Below are positions 10,467-57,270 of a stretch of 64,000 bases of DNA, in pieces. The translations under genes and the position numbers were made by a program. The notes beneath the pieces were generated by a model. It had not been told where the DNA came from. It made no database searches and saw nothing but the letters and a program-made list of their open reading frames with translations. Every line of letters begins with the position of its first letter. The first letter of the stretch is position 1. The stretch spans positions 168,268,001 through 168,332,000 of the forward strand of contig NC_042999.1 of the NCBI RefSeq assembly GCF_006345805.1, read 5' to 3'. The stretch comes from Octopus sinensis (lineage: Eukaryota).

Positions 10467-10624
10467 CTGAAGACACCTCCGAAAGGGGGGGCCCCGCCAC
10501 GTCAAAACAGTAGAGGAGTAGAGGCTGAAACCGGACATGGTTCCTCCTGATGATGTCTTGAGCTAACTGGATCCTATAAAGGAGCTGTTGTGGTAGCAGA
10601 CCACGAAACACGGTTGAAATTCCT
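10467..10624 (+). repeat. 5' terminal direct repeat of the Hero element
   Basis: Aligns with 14395-14532, which lacks about 20 nt. Confidence 0.95.
10470..10559 (+). ncRNA. Putative rearranged (non-circularly permuted) hammerhead ribozyme
   Basis: GUA 10510-10512, GAAA 10527-10530, CUGAUGA 10547-10553, with stems I, II and III formed as pseudoknots. Confidence 0.7.
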
Positions 10625-13600
10625 CAGATACTGACTGCAGGGAAAGACTTGCTGACAATCCAGAAAGAGGGATGACAAAGCGGAGAGACGCTTGACAGTA
10701 CGACAGTGTAACGAAAGATCAAATGGGCTTGCAGCCCGATCCGGGGTAAAATTGCAACGAAAAATACATGGGAAATCATGCCCCCATGATCCTAGACCAC
10801 AGGGGGAGAATAAAGGATCAAATAGGAATGGAAAAAAACCAAATGGACTTGGACCGGAAATGAACAATGAGAAAGGAAGCAGTAAAGGAATGGTAGATGA
10901 GGAGTTCAGCTGCTGTGGAAAGGTGTTTGCTAGTTACATCGGGCTGAGAATCCACCAAGGAAAGGTGTGTCAGAAGAAAGTAATTCAACAATGCAGGTTG
11001 ATAAACCATAAGACGTGTGGCCAGAACCTCCTGGAAAATAACCATAGCAAGGTTCATTCTACAGTTGAATTGGAACAATCAAAATGAGTGATAGGCATGA
11101 AGAGGACAAAGATTAAGTGGCCGAAAGCAAATGACGCAGCGAGTTATAAAAAATTTGACAACGAGGTAGCAAGAATGATCACCAAATTCAAAGGCGATGA
11201 TGAACAAAAGCTCAAAAACCTGGCTAATACAATCTACCAGGAAGGAGAGAAAAGATTTGGACTGCATACAATAGGGAAGGTAGAATCAACGGCAAAGAGC
11301 GGACCATCGAGGAGAGAAAGACGGATCACAAAGATTCAAGAAGAGAAGAAAAAAGTCAGATCCAGATGGAGGGATGCAAAGGAGGAGGAAAGAGAAGGGC
11401 TAAAGCAGCTATATGAAGAGATAAAAAAGAGGCATCGTGACCTGCTAAGAAAACAAAGAAGGAGGAGCAGAAGAAAGGAGAGAGAAAAAAACTATCGTAG
11501 CTTTGTGAACAATCCCTACCAATATGCGAAACATCTATTTACTGAAAGTAAAAGCGGAAAATTGGATTGTACGAAAGAAGAGCTCGGACAACATCTGAAA
11601 GAGACATACAGCGACTCGGACAGAAATGAAGTACTCCCAGAAATGCACGGACTGAAGAAACCACCTGAACCAAGAGTACCATTTGATTTGAGCGACATCA
11701 AACGGAAAGAAATGGATGAGTTCATAAGGAAAGCAAGAGCAAAAAGTTCACCAGGGAACGATGGAGTGAGCTACAAGGTATATATACAAATATTGCCCGA
11801 AATTACGTTTGTAGCTGTTTGCACTGATAAGAGAAATGTGGAAGAAGAAAGATGTAGCAGAGCGATGGTGTATAGCCGAAGGTATCTATTTACCTAAAGA
11901 GAAATATGCAAAAACACTAGGACAATTTAGACCAATTTCATTATTAAATACTGACGGGAAAATCATGTTTGGAATTATTGCTAGACGAATCATGAGATTC
12001 GTACAGCATAATGAAGCAATCCAAAAAGCAGGAATCTCCAGAATCCCTGAGTGCATAGAATACGCATTTGCCATCTGGGAAGCCATCACCTGTGCAAAAC
12101 AACTGAAGAAAAACCTGTACGTTGTTTGGCTAGATCTTGCCAATGCTTATGGATCTGTTCCACATGCACTAATAAAAACAGCGATGGACTTCTTTTGGAT
12201 TCCAAAAGATGTTCAACGAATGCTCATGTCGTACTACGACAACCTGAGGATGAGATTTACAGCAGGAAAGTTCACAACAGAGTGGCAACGGCTTGAAATA
12301 GGGATTGCAGCCGGATGCACGATATCGGTCATCTTATTCGTGCTAGTCATGGGAATGCTACTCAGATCTACAAACTGTGAGAAAGCTGTTACAAAGACAC
12401 CGTTAAGGGCTTTTATGGATGACATAACTATATTATCGGAAAGTAGAGAAGCAGCAGAGGGAACGTTAGAGCGGTTGGACGAACTGATAGGATGGGTAAG
12501 AATGAAATTCAAAGCCAAAAAATCTCGAAGCGTGGCTCTCGTGAAAGGAAGGCAAGAAGAAGTGAAATTCAGGATAGGAAGTGAAGACATACCAACGTGA
12601 AAGAAAGGACAACCAGTAAAGAGTCTCGGCAGATGGTATAGAGATTTATTAAATGATAAGAAGCAAAGGAAAGAAACACACGAGTTAGCAGAACAAGGAT
12701 TAAAGGCAATTGACAGAACAACGCTGCCGGGAAAATTCAAATGTTGGATACTGCAATTTGGGCTGTACCCAAGAATAATGTGGCCATTGCAAATGTACGA
12801 AATAGCCTCGAGTAGAGTAGAAAGGGTGGAACAAAGATGCAGTGTGGTTATCAGAAAATGGCTTGGTCTGCCGAAACCACTGAATACAACTGCACTATAT
12901 GGAAAACTCGTGCTGCAACTACCAATAACATCAATCACCGAAGATATAATAGGCAGGAAAGGCAAGGACAGTAATGATGCTAAGGTATTCAAAAGATCAG
13001 GGCATCCGGGAAAACCCCTTAAAGGTACGAACAGGGAGGAAATGGAAGGCGGAAGAGGCAGTAAACAGGGCGATTGGAAAACTAAGGCACGTAGATTTAG
13101 TCAGAGTGATGCAAGAAGCAACAGCCAGCCTAGGGTCGTACAATTTCAGGCCAATTTGCAAGAGCAGTATAAAAGAGATGAAAGAGGCAGTGGTATACGA
13201 AGTGAGAAAGGAGGAAGAAGAAAGGCAAAATGTACATTTGGTGCAATGCAGTCAACAGGGACAGTGCCTGAGATGGGAGGAATATGTGATTAGCCGCAGA
13301 ATATCATGGAAGGAACTTTGGGCTTGGGAACAAGCAAGAACATCCTTCCTGATCAAGTCTACCTTCGACGTTCTACCCTCACCGGCGAACTGAGTCCGGT
13401 GGAACATAAAAACAACCGATGAGTGTAGATGCGGAGAGAAAGCGACGGTTAGACATGTTCTGTCAAACTGCAGATTAGCACTAGAAAGGTATACATGGCG
13501 TCATAATCAAGTCCTCGGCGTCATAAGTGCAGCACTCAAGGAGAAGATCGAGAGGTACAATAGGGGAGAGTACCCAAAAGTGGAAAAGCGCAGGAAAGTA

Positions 13601-14225
13601 TACTTCCACAAGGAGGGAAAAGGATATAAAACCAGGCCTACAAATAAAATATACGAGATAGACGAAAGATGGAAGGGATACTGGGAGGTGGCCACGGATT
13701 TGGAAAGACTAGTAATATTTCCATTAATAAGAATGACAAAAAAAACAGATTTAGTCCTATGAGACAGAGAACGGAGAATAGGAATTTTGCTAGAACTGAC
13801 AGTGCCATGGGAAGAGAACATCAGTAATGCAGAGAAACAAAAGGAGAAGAGGTACAAAAAACTAATCGAAGAGTGCAGAGAACAGGGATGGAATGTCAAA
13901 TATTACCACCTGGCAGTGGGGGCTAGGGGCTTTATTGAAAGAAAAACGACAACGCTATTCAAAAGAAGATTTTTTTTTCCTAGCTCGGAGCTGAGAAAAC
14001 TAATGAGAGTACAGGAGGTGTTCGAAAAAGCCAGCTTCTATATATGGCTGAAGCAGGAAGACCAAAAACGGCTTGAAAGTCATAACATGCCGGCGGAAAA
14101 TAACATCACTAGGTGAAACAAGCTGACACGGAATTAACTTTGCTGACTGACAGATGACGGTATTGTTTAGAGAATGTGTAGGCTGAGACTACGCGTCTTC
14201 ATTGGGTCAGTTAAAGTTGAGACAG

Positions 14226-14306
14226 TGTCACGTGACAACTTGCTGGGGCTGTCTGCTGGAGCAGAGCAGCAGGTATTTAAAGGGAAAAATTTGACAAGAC
14301 AGTTAG
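14226..14306 (+). promoter_or_regulatory. Putative Pol II promoter in the Hero 3' UTR
   Basis: Palindromic E-box TGTCACGTGACA 14226-14237, TATTTAAAG 14274-14282, Inr-like CAGTT/TTAGTC about 27-31 nt downstream. Confidence 0.45.
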
Positions 14307-14394
14307 TCGTCCATTGACACTCGTTCACGCTACATTGAAGAGGCCAGGGAACAGAAGAAAGAGGAAGAAAGAAGACATACACCCAACACCAGAG

Positions 14395-14532
14395 CTGAAG
14401 ACACCTCCAAAGGGAGGGTAGAAGAGTAGGGGCCGAAACAGGATGTGGTTCCTCCTGATGATGTCTTGAGCTAACTGGATCCTATAAAGGAGCTGTTGTG
14501 GTAGCAGACCACGAAACATGGTTGAAATTCCT
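14395..14532 (+). repeat. 3' terminal direct repeat of the Hero element (internally deleted ribozyme copy)
   Basis: Keeps GUA 14418-14420, GGGGCC-GAAA 14429-14438 and CUGAUGA 14455-14461, but lacks the GGCCCC/CCACGTC strands. Confidence 0.9.
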
Positions 14533-35808: not shown

Positions 35809-35945
35809 GTTCCAACGAATTTTTCCACCGTCTAGGCTTAAAAAAGGCCCTTATTGTTGATTTCCTTGTCCTGTTTTATTCTTTATGTGTACTGTTTTTT
35901 CTTCATTTGTATTGCTTTTACGTCCTGTTCTTGTCACTTTTTTTT

Positions 35946-36074
35946 TTCCCCCCACTCTGCAAAAGAATTTTATTTAATTCATTTTGCAGGAAGGACTGCT
36001 TCGGCCGGATCGTGTTCTGCTCTTACCTTCGAAACACGCAATGAGTCAAACCAGGGGCAACTGATGAAGGGGAA
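35946..36074 (+). ncRNA. Putative rearranged hammerhead ribozyme in an unclassified repeat
   Basis: CGTG-UU 36011-36016, CCTTC-GAAA-CACG 36026-36038, CUGAUGA 36061-36067; same helix map as 10470-10559. Confidence 0.65.
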
Positions 36075-36257
36075 TATTCCTTGTATTGTTTGTCTTGTAC
36101 TCTGTTTTTTCGTTGTTAAAAAAAGTCTGTTTTCTTGTTTGATTTTATGTTTTCGTTTCTCGTGTTCTACGTTTATTTGTGGTGTTCTGTACTCATATAT
36201 ATATATATGCATGTATGTATATATATAGATGTAGGTATGTACATATATGTATGTATG

Positions 36258-36806
36258 GTCACTTTCGAGTGCTACTGGTAACATGTAACCCAGTACAACC
36301 TGTTGCGTCGTCGGGTCGTCGGCGACTAAACCAGCAACCCCACCAAGCTTGCTTGGTGAGGAGGGTGTTTATTGGTCACCCTGCGGGATGAAAAACAAAA
36401 CCCGTCAAAGGGCGGAGGAACTCTTGAGAGTCAACGGCCAGCCAATAAATGTCTTAAGGCTGTATCATGCGCGGGGACATAGAAATAATCGGACTGAATA
36501 CCCGATGGCACAGTTAAACCATTGGGAGTGAAGGACTCCCAGCCTTTGTTAGGGCATCCTTCTAGGAGAAGGCAACTCAGGTAACTGGGATAACTCCGAC
36601 ATAAAACCTGCGGCTCAGTGGCTACCGATGATGTTGACTTGTTCTTCTTTTCGGATTATGGCTGCTGTTGCTTAGTGAGTGGGATTGACTCAGTGCACAG
36701 CCTTTCCTCACTTTAAAAAAAAATCTTCTTGCATAGGCATTGCACGATAACAACATTGATTAAGCTTTGTGCAATGGCCATACTCGATAACGAGGGGGCA
36801 GCCACC
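36258..36806 (+). mobile_element. Non-autonomous, RTE 5'-UTR-like insertion
   Basis: GC/CpG-rich; motifs AAAGGGCGGAGGAACTC and CTAGGAGAAGGCAACTC resemble RTE leaders; flanked by the direct repeat ATATGTATGTATG. Confidence 0.55.
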
Positions 36807-36934
36807 ATATGTATGTATGCATATGTTTTATTTATTAAATTGTTATTATATATATATGTATATATATTACAGAGATGTACTTGCATAGCAAGTGACCTGA
36901 TCTGAGATCATGTGCTGGAACGAAAGCAATTGAA

Positions 36935-53448: not shown

Positions 53449-55020
53449 ATAAAAATGGTAAGACAACAAAAGAATGAAAGAGACCTCGATATTATGTAAA
53501 TAAAGGAATTTATCTGTAAATGTAATATGTGACAATTATTCGGTAGCCAGCCATTAAGAATAAGAATAAAGAGAGATTTACACAATTCGATATTGTTGTT
53601 TTTTATGCCTCTATCTCTAGATAAAACCCTCACCTTCACAAGCGATTTCATAGAAATCAGTACACAGGATAAGGACATAATTTTCCATGCTAGAAAGACT
53701 TTACTTTTCAGCAAGAACGCAGAGTTGGTCAAGACTACCGATACAGAGGATGCTTTCAATGTGAGCATGGGGTTATATGATGCAGCAGGCATACACGATC
53801 TTATTGGATTATTTCTACTCGATACATTGGGCAAGACCTTTCCTGACATATACTTCGCCATCTACAAAGATGATGCCCTCACCTTAACCGCAAATACCAA
53901 TGGACCAGCACAAGATCGGTCATTATCCATTTGATGAAAACCCTTGGACTTAGTATAACTACAGACACCAACCTGGTGGTTGTCAATTTCCTAGACGTAT
54001 CCTTAGATCTAAATAAGAACATTTATAAGCCTTATAGGAAGCCCAATGATAGACTTAGTTATATTAATGTAGGTTCCTGCCATTCCCCTATAGTATTAAA
54101 AAATTTAATTAAAAACATTAGCAAGAGAATTTCTAGCCTCTCCTCCGATAAGGACATTTTTAATAGCGTTGCCCCACTATATAATAAGGCTCTAAAAGAT
54201 AGAGGTTTTAGCAAGGAAATAACCTATACACCTGCCACCAGCCCAACAATAAAGAAGAGGAGACATAGGAATACGAAAACCATTTGGTTCACACACCCCT
54301 ACTCATCTGAGGTGACTTTAAATATAGGCAAGTATTTCTTAGCACTGATAAACAGACATTTTATAGTCAACCATACTTACAGAAAGCTCTTCAATAGACA
54401 CAACTTAAAAATCAGTTTCAGCTTAACTACCAATTCTAAAAATATAATCACACACAACACACAGAAACCACAATACGAAACCAGCTGTTCGTGCAGGGAT
54501 AAAAGTTTGTGCCCACTAAATGGAGCTTGCATGTCTGAGACCATAATTTATGAAGCCACTGTGGACTCTATATCCACTAAAGACACGGTTTCGATGAAGA
54601 TATACGTGGGCCTTGCAGAGAGTAATTTCAAGGCCAGGTTTCAATAATCACACCTTGAGCTTTAGGCACTGGGATAAAAAGAAAACGATCAAATTATCCA
54701 GTTATATATGATCATTAAAAGATAAAGGTGTCAGTTACAACATCCATTGGAAGATCTTAGCTAAGTGTAAGCCCTACACCAATGGCAGTGGAAAGTGCAG
54801 TCTATGTGATATGGAAAGATGGCTCATCTGGAAAAGCAGCTTAGACACCGCTACATGTCTGAATTCAAGAACTGAATTTTCGGATCATGCACATATGTGG
54901 CCAAATATTTGATACATTTTTGGTCCCCCCGAGATTACAGATTGAACTTGCTTTCTATATTGTGTCCACATACAAGCTTTTTATCTCTTTATACCTTTTA
55001 CTTATATTTCTTATATATCT
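53445..55020 (+). mobile_element. Penelope-like element (RT plus GIY-YIG endonuclease), decayed
   Basis: SMGLYD, YKDD, NFLDVSLDL, YRKPND, CSCRDKSLCPLNGAC, IIYEATV..IYVGLAESNFKARF, CSLC. Confidence 0.85.
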
Positions 55021-57020
55021 TTATTTATACTTTTTATACAGAGGTTGCTAAGGGACAACCTGCTGAGAGCCACTGACCAGATCTGTGGTTGGTGCAAAGT
55101 CCCCTCAAGACCCAAAATAACGTGGTGGTGGAACAATATTGTTGACAGGGCTATTAGACAAAAGAAACAGGCTTGGAAGGACTGGAAGAACGGTGGTAGC
55201 AGGGAGGTATATCAGACTGCCAGAAGGGAAGCTAGGAGGCAGGTGTATTTAACCAGAGGGGAAGCAGATAAGAAAAAATTTGCCAATGTTCTGAGCCGTG
55301 AGGATGAAAGACTTCAGGTATTTCATGTTGCAAGACAGTGTGTGAGAAAGAGTCGTGATGTGGTAGGAGAGAAATGTGTTCGCATGAATGATGGTTCACT
55401 TGCGCTAAATGAGGATGCAAAGAGACAGGTTTGGAGACGCCACTATGAAAGGTTGCTAAATAAAGAAAATGAATGGGATAAAGAGAGTCTGCCGAATGTC
55501 GACCCAACAGAGGGACCAGCTATCCGAGTTGATAGTTCCTTGGTAGTTAAGGCAATTAGAAGCATGAAGACAGGGAAAGCCCCAGGCCCATCAGGAATTA
55601 CTGCAGAGATGCTCAAAATATCTGGTAGTGTCGGCTATAGCCTAGTCACCCATATAGTTAACCAGGTGATACAAGAAGGAGTCATTCACAATGACTGGTG
55701 TAGCAGCATACTAGTCAACTGCTACAAAGGTAAAAGTGACGCTTTAGATACAAATAATTACTGAGGTATCAAGCTGTTGGATCAGGTAATGACGGTTATG
55801 GAGAGGGTCATAGCCCAACTAATTAGAGAGAGAGTTAGCTTAGATGAGATGCAGTTTGGGTTCATGCCAGGGAAAAGCGCCACTGATGCCATATTCCTGG
55901 TGAGACAGCTGCAGGAGAAATACCTAGCCAAAGATAAGCCCCTGTACCTGGCTTTTGTTGACATGGAAAAAGGCTTTGACAAGGTCCCCCGATCCCTTAT
56001 CTGGTGGTCAATGAGGAAACTAGGGATAGATGAATGGTTAGTGAGAGCTGTGCGAGCCATGTACAGGGACGCTGCTAGTAAGGTGAGGGTTAGCAACGAG
56101 TACAGTGAAGAATTCCGGGTAGAGGTAGGGGTCCACCAAGGTTCAGTCCTCAGCCCCCTCCTGTTTATCATAGTCCTCCAATCAATAACGGAGGAATTCA
56201 AGGCAGGATGCCCCTGGGAGCTCCTCTATGCTGATGACCTTGCTCTAATTGCTGAGTCACTATCAGAACTGGAGGAGAAGTTTCAGGTGTGGAAGCAAGG
56301 ATTAGAATCGAAGGGCCTTAGAGTCAACCTAGTTAAAACCAAAGTCCTAATAAGTAGGAAGGTAGACAAATCACAAACGCCTTCAGGTAGATGGCCCTGC
56401 TCGATCTGTAAAAAATGCATAGGTAGAAACTCTATAAGGTGCACCAAGTGTAAGCTATGGACACATAAGAGGTACAGTAATGTCAAAAGAAAGCTAACTA
56501 GGAAGATAGCTTTTGTATGTGGCAGATGCTTAGGAGCGATAAACACTGAAAATGCTCAGAGACCAACTTCCACCACATTCCAGGGAGAAAAACTTGAAAT
56601 AGTTGATAGCTTCCATTACCTAGGTGACCAAGTCAGTAGCGGAGGCGGGTGTGCTGAAAGTGTAACTGCTAGAGTAAGAATAGCCTGGGCAAAGTTCAGA
56701 GAGCTCTTACCTCTGCTGGTGAGAAAAGGCCTCTCGCTCAGAGTAAAAGGCAGACTGTATGATGCATGTGTACGAACAGCTATGCTACATGGTAGTGAAA
56801 CATGGGCCATGACTGCTGAGGATATGCATAAGCTCGCAAGAAATGAAGCCAGTATGCTCCAATTGATGTGTAATGTCAGTGTTCATGCTCGACAGAGTGT
56901 AAGTACCTTGAGAGAAAAGCTGGACCAAAGAAGCATCAGTTGTGGTGTGCAAGAGAGACGTTTGCGCTGGTATGGTCATGTGATAAGAATGGATGAAGAT
57001 AGTTGTGTGAAAAAGTGCCT
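55020..57020 (+). mobile_element. RTE LINE, truncated at both ends
   Basis: ORFs 55045-55764 and 55777-57045, separated by one in-frame stop. Confidence 0.95.
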
Positions 57021-57270
57021 GACCTTCGAAACGTGGAGTAGATGAAATTAAGGTGACTGAAGAAGAGGAATTTTCCTTGTTTGTATGTCCTGTACACTAT
57101 TTATTCTTTGTTTAAAAAATGTCCATTTCCTCGGTTTTGTGTTTATGTTTTCGTTTCTCATTGTGTTCGACGTTTTTTGGTGTCCTGTACCCATATATGC
57201 ATGTATAGGTACGTACATATATGTATGTATATATGCATATGTTTTATTTATTTATTTATATATATATATA
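57021..57270 (+). repeat. Partial diverged copy of the ribozyme-bearing repeat at 35810-36850
   Basis: ACCTTCGAAAC...CTGAAGAAGAGGAA, followed by a T-rich tract aligning with 36080-36250. Confidence 0.7.

Follow-up and report, generated by a model that had tools for sequence, protein, structure and literature searches.

Non-circularly permuted hammerhead ribozymes were described in 2023 by Eckert et al. from environmental RNA; genomes of known organisms gave no more than one weak candidate, in a bacterium. Those of type SGC (HRIMA-1 and its variants) came from metatranscriptomes, none from a known organism's genome, and type CSG is known from two metagenome sequences (PMC10085705). Ribozymes of both types cleave in vitro, and the one extra U that follows A9 in SGC-1, SGC-2 and the SGC descriptor is tolerated by HRIMA-1 ribozymes (PMC10085705). 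Among retroelements, non-LTR (long terminal repeat) retrozymes are described as tandem units without an open reading frame (ORF), each with one type I hammerhead, that are thought to be mobilised by Penelope-like elements (PLEs) (PMC7229834; bioRxiv 10.64898/2026.07.22.740005). For the Naiad PLEs, PMC8557442 reports no canonical hammerhead, some of them being labelled 'HHR_core' or 'HHR_half_core', and gives (TA)n targeting, partial tandems, inverted truncated copies and a tail as Naiad/PLE traits. Here we describe an RNA motif at positions 35951-36072 of a 64,000-nt stretch of the Octopus sinensis genome (the window; GCF_006345805.1, NC_042999.1, 168,268,001-168,332,000, plus strand), which lies in a copy of a repeat that we call family A. 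In our favoured reading, to which we give a probability of roughly 0.75, it is a hammerhead core of non-circular order with predicted self-cleavage after U36016, near the 3' end of an ORF-less repeat that is likely of the Naiad type.

The motif resembles type SGC in its block order (cleavage site, GAAA, CUGAUGA), its short linker between stems I and II, the helix joining the distal ends of these stems, its core letters and the insertion point after A9. Unlike in SGC, the cleavage site here is preceded on its 5' side by both the partner of stem II and the interaction helix, and two helices take the place of the single U, so that block C is interrupted; type SGC has CUGAUGA(U)G in direct pairing with the strand that precedes CGAAA. 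Type CSG shares the cyclic order of the blocks but joins A9 directly to G10.1, and hammerhead types I, II and III have the circular C-G-S order and a three-way junction without a pseudoknot, whereas the order here is S-G-C. Judged by sequence and pairing, the motif is a variant of the hammerhead class with a connectivity that is probably new. The literature searched, which excluded most subscription papers and the bioRxiv supplements, held no report of non-circular hammerheads from animal genomes or from Naiads, and no hammerhead with helices between A9 and G10.1 was found in a search that did not extend to earlier extra-stem variants. Neither feature appears in the available parts of PMC13725137, PMC12192606, PMC10162972, PMC6765202, PMC544870 and bioRxiv 10.64898/2026.09.16.752053.

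Strand order and pairing of the motif

By its pairings, the motif runs on the plus strand from the 5' strand of an outer helix IIa (35951-35956) through a hairpin (35957-35989) that is flush with its neighbours on both sides, the 5' strand of stem II (GAAGG, 35990-35994, with G35990 as the predicted G10.1), the 5' strand of helix P4 (35996-36005) and the 3' strand of stem III with U16.1 and H17 (36011-36016), after which, in a GUU triplet, the cut is predicted. There follow the 3' strand of stem I (36017-36024) and a short linker; the 3' strand of stem II, GAAA (36031-36034) and the 5' strand of stem III (together 36026-36038, with C11.1 at 36030); the 3' strand of P4 (36045-36054); the 5' strand of stem I (36053-36060); the catalytic core CUGAUGA (36061-36067), which has the form CUGANGA across families; and, directly after A9, the 3' strand of IIa (AGGGG, 36068-36072). 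P4 is the counterpart of the stem I-II interaction helix of type SGC (PMC10085705).

Every strand named in the initial annotation is present where it had been placed. The proposed pairing of GAAGG with CCTTC (36026-36030) directly before GAAA holds, being kept across families with compensatory changes that support the helix map as a whole, and stem III pairs as predicted (CGTG-T at 36011-36015 with A-CACG at 36034-36038), leaving T36016 as H17. Stem I is also present, with a C-A mismatch in its first pair that turns out to be private to the window copy: the other copies carry the restoring letters, G at 36060 in 31/31 and C at 36021 in 29/31. Two helices are redrawn here. The outer helix TTCCCC/GGGGAA was a slipped register in a mutated C-run, the family helix being CCCCU/AGGGG and flush with the hairpin, and the suggested pseudoknot TTCGGC/GTCAAA does pair, as part of the longer helix P4. 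In the 5' strand of IIa the window copy reads CCCACU for the family's ACCCCU (one mismatch), A36048 in P4 is G in 30/31 other copies, and CUGAUGA is intact in 28/31 of them; the hairpin arms of the window copy are CTGCAAAA (35957-35964) and TTTTGCAG (35982-35989). This copy is probably impaired by its private mutations in stem I, P4 and IIa. A palindrome, GGAATATTCC, at 36071-36080 directly 3' of helix IIa, is not retained in families B and D.

Pairing was compared over nine natural representatives (A, B, D, F, G, H1, H2, H4 and Naiad, with H3, the Hero-like motif and the old Naiad left out) and over 120 instances overall, the Hero-like and Naiad averages being taken from per-instance sets; the averages over the instances agree with the counts for the representatives. 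In the representatives, stem I was Watson-Crick at 44 of 45 pairs and stem III paired at 36 of 36, and stem II formed with the 5' strand was Watson-Crick at 44 of 45, with G-C at 10.1-11.1, next to GAAA, in 9/9. Direct pairing of stem II, in which the AGGGG strand after CUGANGA would pair with CCUUC, reached 19, 27 and 21 of 45 in three registers (10, 16 and 11 Watson-Crick) and began with A-C or U-C in all nine. This direct model was initially preferred and was dropped because the Naiad, G and H families are unable to form it. The core letters, the A15.1-U16.1 pair and the G10.1-C11.1 pair are invariant while the stems change, and every family has U, C or A as H17, G being excluded by the descriptor. 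The motif has the CUGANGA, GAAA and UH letters with A15.1-U16.1 that define the hammerhead class, together with three stems, I to III, backed by covariation over about 4-5 independent lineages.

The additional helices recur as well. The flush hairpin with IIa was present in 25/28 family A, 28/32 B, 10/14 D, 10/13 Hero-like and 10/13 Naiad instances; the hairpin covaries between families A, B and D, and those of the H and G families were read by eye. P4, which joins the distal ends of stems I and II, has a mean length of 4.9-8.7 bp per family, and, counted after 5 bp of stem I, a linker of 3-6 nt leads on to stem II. Across families of different sequence each helix keeps its pairing, and on this comparative evidence a conserved, high-copy RNA structure is real. 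Both the 5'-strand connectivity of stem II and self-cleavage by intact copies are, in our judgement, highly probable predictions. The fold would correspond to type SGC/CSG reopened between A9 and G10.1, where IIa and the hairpin may stack into a single nicked helix, one end of the nick leading to A9 and the other to G10.1, with P4 holding stems I and II together.

Family A, its relatives and the Naiad link

The window copy of family A is degraded and 5'-truncated, starts after (TA)n and spans 35809-36257 on the plus strand. It is split by an unrelated repeat of 549 nt (36258-36806) flanked by a 13-nt target duplication (36245-36257 and 36807-36819), and the remaining 3' end of the unit (36807-36849, plus strand) is joined to (TA)n. 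The host had been taken for a repeat that ends in (TA)n, which is correct for the end near 36849; the TA-rich stretch at 36197-36257 is internal. The inserted repeat is unclassified, has another copy within locus L005 and gave no useful match in Rfam.

In a search of the octopus's own genome (2.7 Gb), 3077 first-look candidates for family A were obtained, 40 of which were scored, at 90-93% identity, and the exact family A S-G-C pattern had 159 matches genome-wide against 0 in the reversed control. The unit is tandemly repeated with a period of ~800 nt (840-880 nt in family B) and has no ORF, and the majority letters that mend the broken pairs of the window copy recur in contigs of four public runs with four organism labels. 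Across 30 loci the 3' end is fixed on (TA)n, the 5' end is variable and a ~60-nt tail is frequent; tandems occur at L005, L020 and L023, and inverted pieces adjoin copies at L016, L019, L022 and L027. Family A shows the (TA)n targeting, partial tandems, inverted truncated copies and tail of Naiad PLEs and differs from them in having no ORF, the Naiad ORF being defined by an N-terminal GIY-YIG domain and a C-terminal reverse transcriptase (RT). It also shares with retrozymes the ORF-less tandem units with one hammerhead each; retrozymes have type I hammerheads, whereas the family A motif is non-circular, their units are mostly 170-400 nt, with families up to 972 bp in the preprint (bioRxiv 10.64898/2026.07.22.740005), and circles have been shown for them, whereas family A is known from sequence. 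In four loci (L246, L142, L114 and L200) internal deletions, often via short microhomologies, remove the stem II 5' strand and P4. A splice-donor-like AG|GTAA, a feature also of PLE pseudo-LTRs, occurs in the 5' part of the B unit (L046, minus strand, ~1425) and, at the start of the family A unit, in the A tail.

Families B and D are homologous to A (64% and 72% identity) and differ from it in stems I and III; a family D copy in the window (57020-57260, plus strand) is 5'-truncated ~2 nt 3' of the predicted cut. Flanking sequence and a loose pattern search brought up three more families, F, G and H, and the loose core pattern had 12,803 matches in the genome against 784 in the reversed control, a 16-fold excess. 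The same architecture is present at 10467-10566 (plus strand), with a second, partly deleted copy at 14395-14474, in an R2-superfamily element at 10467-14530 that contains a broken RT and a restriction-like endonuclease motif, forms a partial tandem and carries the motif near its 3' end, ~95 nt from the terminus. 'Hero' was the initial annotation's label for this element and is replaced here by the more cautious Hero-like; the claim that the two share one helix map is borne out. BLASTN of family A against H, Naiad and Hero-like sequences found no similarity, and the proposal that the fold is used by more than one lineage holds.

The link to Naiads was examined in 12 published consensus ends, read by eye. 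Three carry the full architecture (two from octopus, one from the cnidarian Clytia), the Euprymna end has a degenerate version, and the nematode ends Naiad_Parc and Naiad-2_Nbra show a clean type-CSG motif with a stem I-II helix; the other six (Chem-1, Dst-2, Dst-3, Omin, Adux and Skow-1) have no clear motif in the ~600 nt visible of each. The octopus Naiad motif had 133 genome matches against 0 in the control, and it lies 3' of Naiad RT remnants on the same strand at 6/15, 5/10 and 6/20 loci in three samples. Its stem I is identical to that of family A.

Searches for a parent from the Naiad RT met only Naiad's own motif, the 5' flanks of long family A copies run into another unit or a microsatellite without a parent, and a tandem cluster (L149-150) considered as parent is a mix of ORF-less units. 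Elsewhere in the window, a Penelope-like ORF at 53874-54860 is broken and has a GIY-YIG-like region at its C-terminus; another element has overwritten its 3' end. A near-intact Penelope-like ORF with a 782-aa open frame, RT then GIY-YIG, is present at L193 (G000:C15:611500-617500, minus strand), and its 3' region holds no S-G-C motif by the pattern used. Minimal canonical-order hammerhead-like motifs of other repeats sit in the same microsatellite clusters as the motif, 600-1000 nt upstream of it at L003 and L009 and downstream at L211.

5' ends of copies and a possible replication cycle

If the RNA is cut before it is copied, copies should begin just 3' of the cut. In a first sample, the sole criterion for choosing copies was a 20-mer that begins at G12; the first 91 of 480 hits gave 90 regions, 88 of them distinct. 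Of the 88 5' boundaries, 23 fell in the 16 nt from GAAA to the predicted cut and 9 in the 60 nt that follow, for a hazard ratio of 7.4 (p 6e-8). For a second sample, which has about 10 copies in common with the first, the seed lay ~80 nt downstream of G12 (first 50 of 541, 49 distinct); 17 of 49 boundaries fell at -1..+21, 6 in the 73 nt downstream and 4 in the 60 nt upstream, giving ratios of 12.0 and 7.9, with p values that are optimistic because the zone edges were set after looking at the boundary data. One downstream and one upstream call in this sample are scoring errors, which act against the excess. For the H families, 11/61 boundaries lay 3' of the cut by eye versus about 9 in the next 60 nt. 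No boundary was found between +18 and +55, where the polymerase first meets IIa, stem I and P4, so simple polymerase stalling is disfavoured. This clustering of 5' ends immediately 3' of where the cut is predicted may be read as indirect evidence of cleavage in vivo.

The cycle that we consider most likely is the following. Tandem or read-through transcripts would be cut once per unit into ~800-nt monomers with a 5'-OH at C36017, and a Penelope-like RT acting in trans would prime at (TA)n, the fixed 3' end of the unit, which lies ~275 nt downstream of the cut. Copies that start just 3' of the cut would come from cut templates; longer and tandem copies would come from templates left uncut or re-ligated into circles, a step taken by analogy from retrozymes (PMC7229834; bioRxiv 10.64898/2026.07.22.740005).

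Alternative readings and meaning

Several observations weigh against the favoured reading. The 5' partner of stem II is the best of ~28 positions, with single-family shuffle p values of 0.01-0.19; conservation within family A is uninformative (0.97 in the stems, 0.96 and 0.97 in the flanks); and the representatives are non-independent, A, B and D sharing 64-72% identity and the H/G group being related, so only about 4-5 lineages count. IIa is weak in some families (H1 has two U-U beside A9, the young Naiad a mismatch), and we infer the geometry, because among published hammerheads none was found that has helices between A9 and G10.1. An exact start at the cut was seen in just 3/88 copies, one of them an internal deletion, the boundary peaks fall on TA and ACAC microhomologies, and 26/49 copies of the second sample read through the cut site. 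The Rfam scan of the window returned no match at gathering score and no hammerhead, the sub-threshold matches near the motif falling mostly on the TA-rich tail. At 169 flanking A/B/D/H loci, neither a parent ORF for family A nor a Naiad RT was found.

These points lend different weight to different alternatives. Chance complementarity in a decayed repeat rich in G/C runs would fit the missing Rfam match and the unremarkable nested fold (minimum free energy z-score -1.6), and CTGATGA alone occurs 15 times in the window against 11.6 expected, no enrichment. The real site, however, passes a strict descriptor of the whole arrangement that matched 0/60 window shuffles (the loose one matched 4/60), and the genome-wide pattern excess and the covariation point the same way; the compensatory changes between families already refute chance, which we regard as practically excluded. 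Quite improbable, too, is a plain type-SGC hammerhead that is active through direct AGGGG/CCUUC pairing, with the 5' strands forming an alternative fold that switches it off. With G-U counted, direct pairing still makes ~4/5 pairs in A, B, D and the Hero-like motif, both 5' strands would sequester the two strands of stem II, and the many read-through copies would mean that the ribozyme is often off. Against it, the Naiad, G and H families reach just 1.6-2.8 of 5 direct pairs, too few for the stem, direct pairing opens with A-C or U-C in all nine representatives, each of which has G10.1-C11.1 through the 5' strand, the duplex energy prefers the 5' strand (-4.6 vs -3.1 kcal/mol), and the motif fails the published SGC descriptors.

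GUU, the triplet of family A, is a less favoured hammerhead cleavage triplet, which would suit a conserved structure derived from a hammerhead, no longer catalytic and serving as a binding or stalling signal for the RT; the 5' ends could then come from polymerase stalling in the knot or from microhomology to (CA)n/(TA)n. We consider this slightly less credible still than the plain SGC form, given that the core letters, A15.1-U16.1 and G10.1-C11.1 stay fixed while the stems vary, that no 5' ends lie in IIa, stem I or P4, and that TA and TG microhomologies are present in both flanking zones too. The alternative that deserves more attention, unlikely as it is, accepts the ribozyme and has family A mobilised by an R2-superfamily element or a PLE with a C-terminal endonuclease. 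The Hero-like element has the same motif, the 169 loci lack a Naiad ORF, and 7 of them have remnants of C-terminal-endonuclease PLEs nearby; these remnants are mostly opposite-strand or downstream, the single one checked is separated from the copy by a microsatellite, and as parents of A, B or H copies they are mere neighbours where checked. The identical stem I of family A and the Naiad motif also speaks against it, as do (TA)n targeting, tails and inversions, which are PLE traits (PMC8557442). As no parent ORF was found, a Naiad origin of family A is drawn from structure and targeting; family A is likely a non-autonomous Penelope-like (Naiad-type) retroelement, and mobilisation of the Naiad type is probable.

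Taken together, and with somewhat less assurance than for Naiad-type mobilisation, the motif would be a double-pseudoknotted core with a five-helix junction, G10.1 on a separate strand and a nicked two-helix stack after A9. It would serve as the 3' ribozyme of many Naiads from cnidarians to cephalopods (with type CSG in nematodes), occur in over ten thousand copies in this genome, be shared with an R2-superfamily retrotransposon and cut in vivo, a cleavage of which the copies' 5' ends keep the record.

In summary, a non-circular hammerhead is described here at high copy number, in an animal genome and in a defined host element, and its two helices after A9 break the assumption that the CUGANGA block cannot be interrupted (PMC10085705). 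Read by eye, the nematode Naiad ends would extend type CSG beyond two metagenome sequences. The 5'-end pile-up would be an indirect genomic footprint tying cleavage to retrotransposition. The motif likely cuts the element's own RNA and would thereby supply the ribozyme thought to be missing from Naiads, offering a direct answer to why they seemed to be without the hammerhead of other Penelope-like elements, and one argument for regarding these ribozymes as dispensable passengers falls away.
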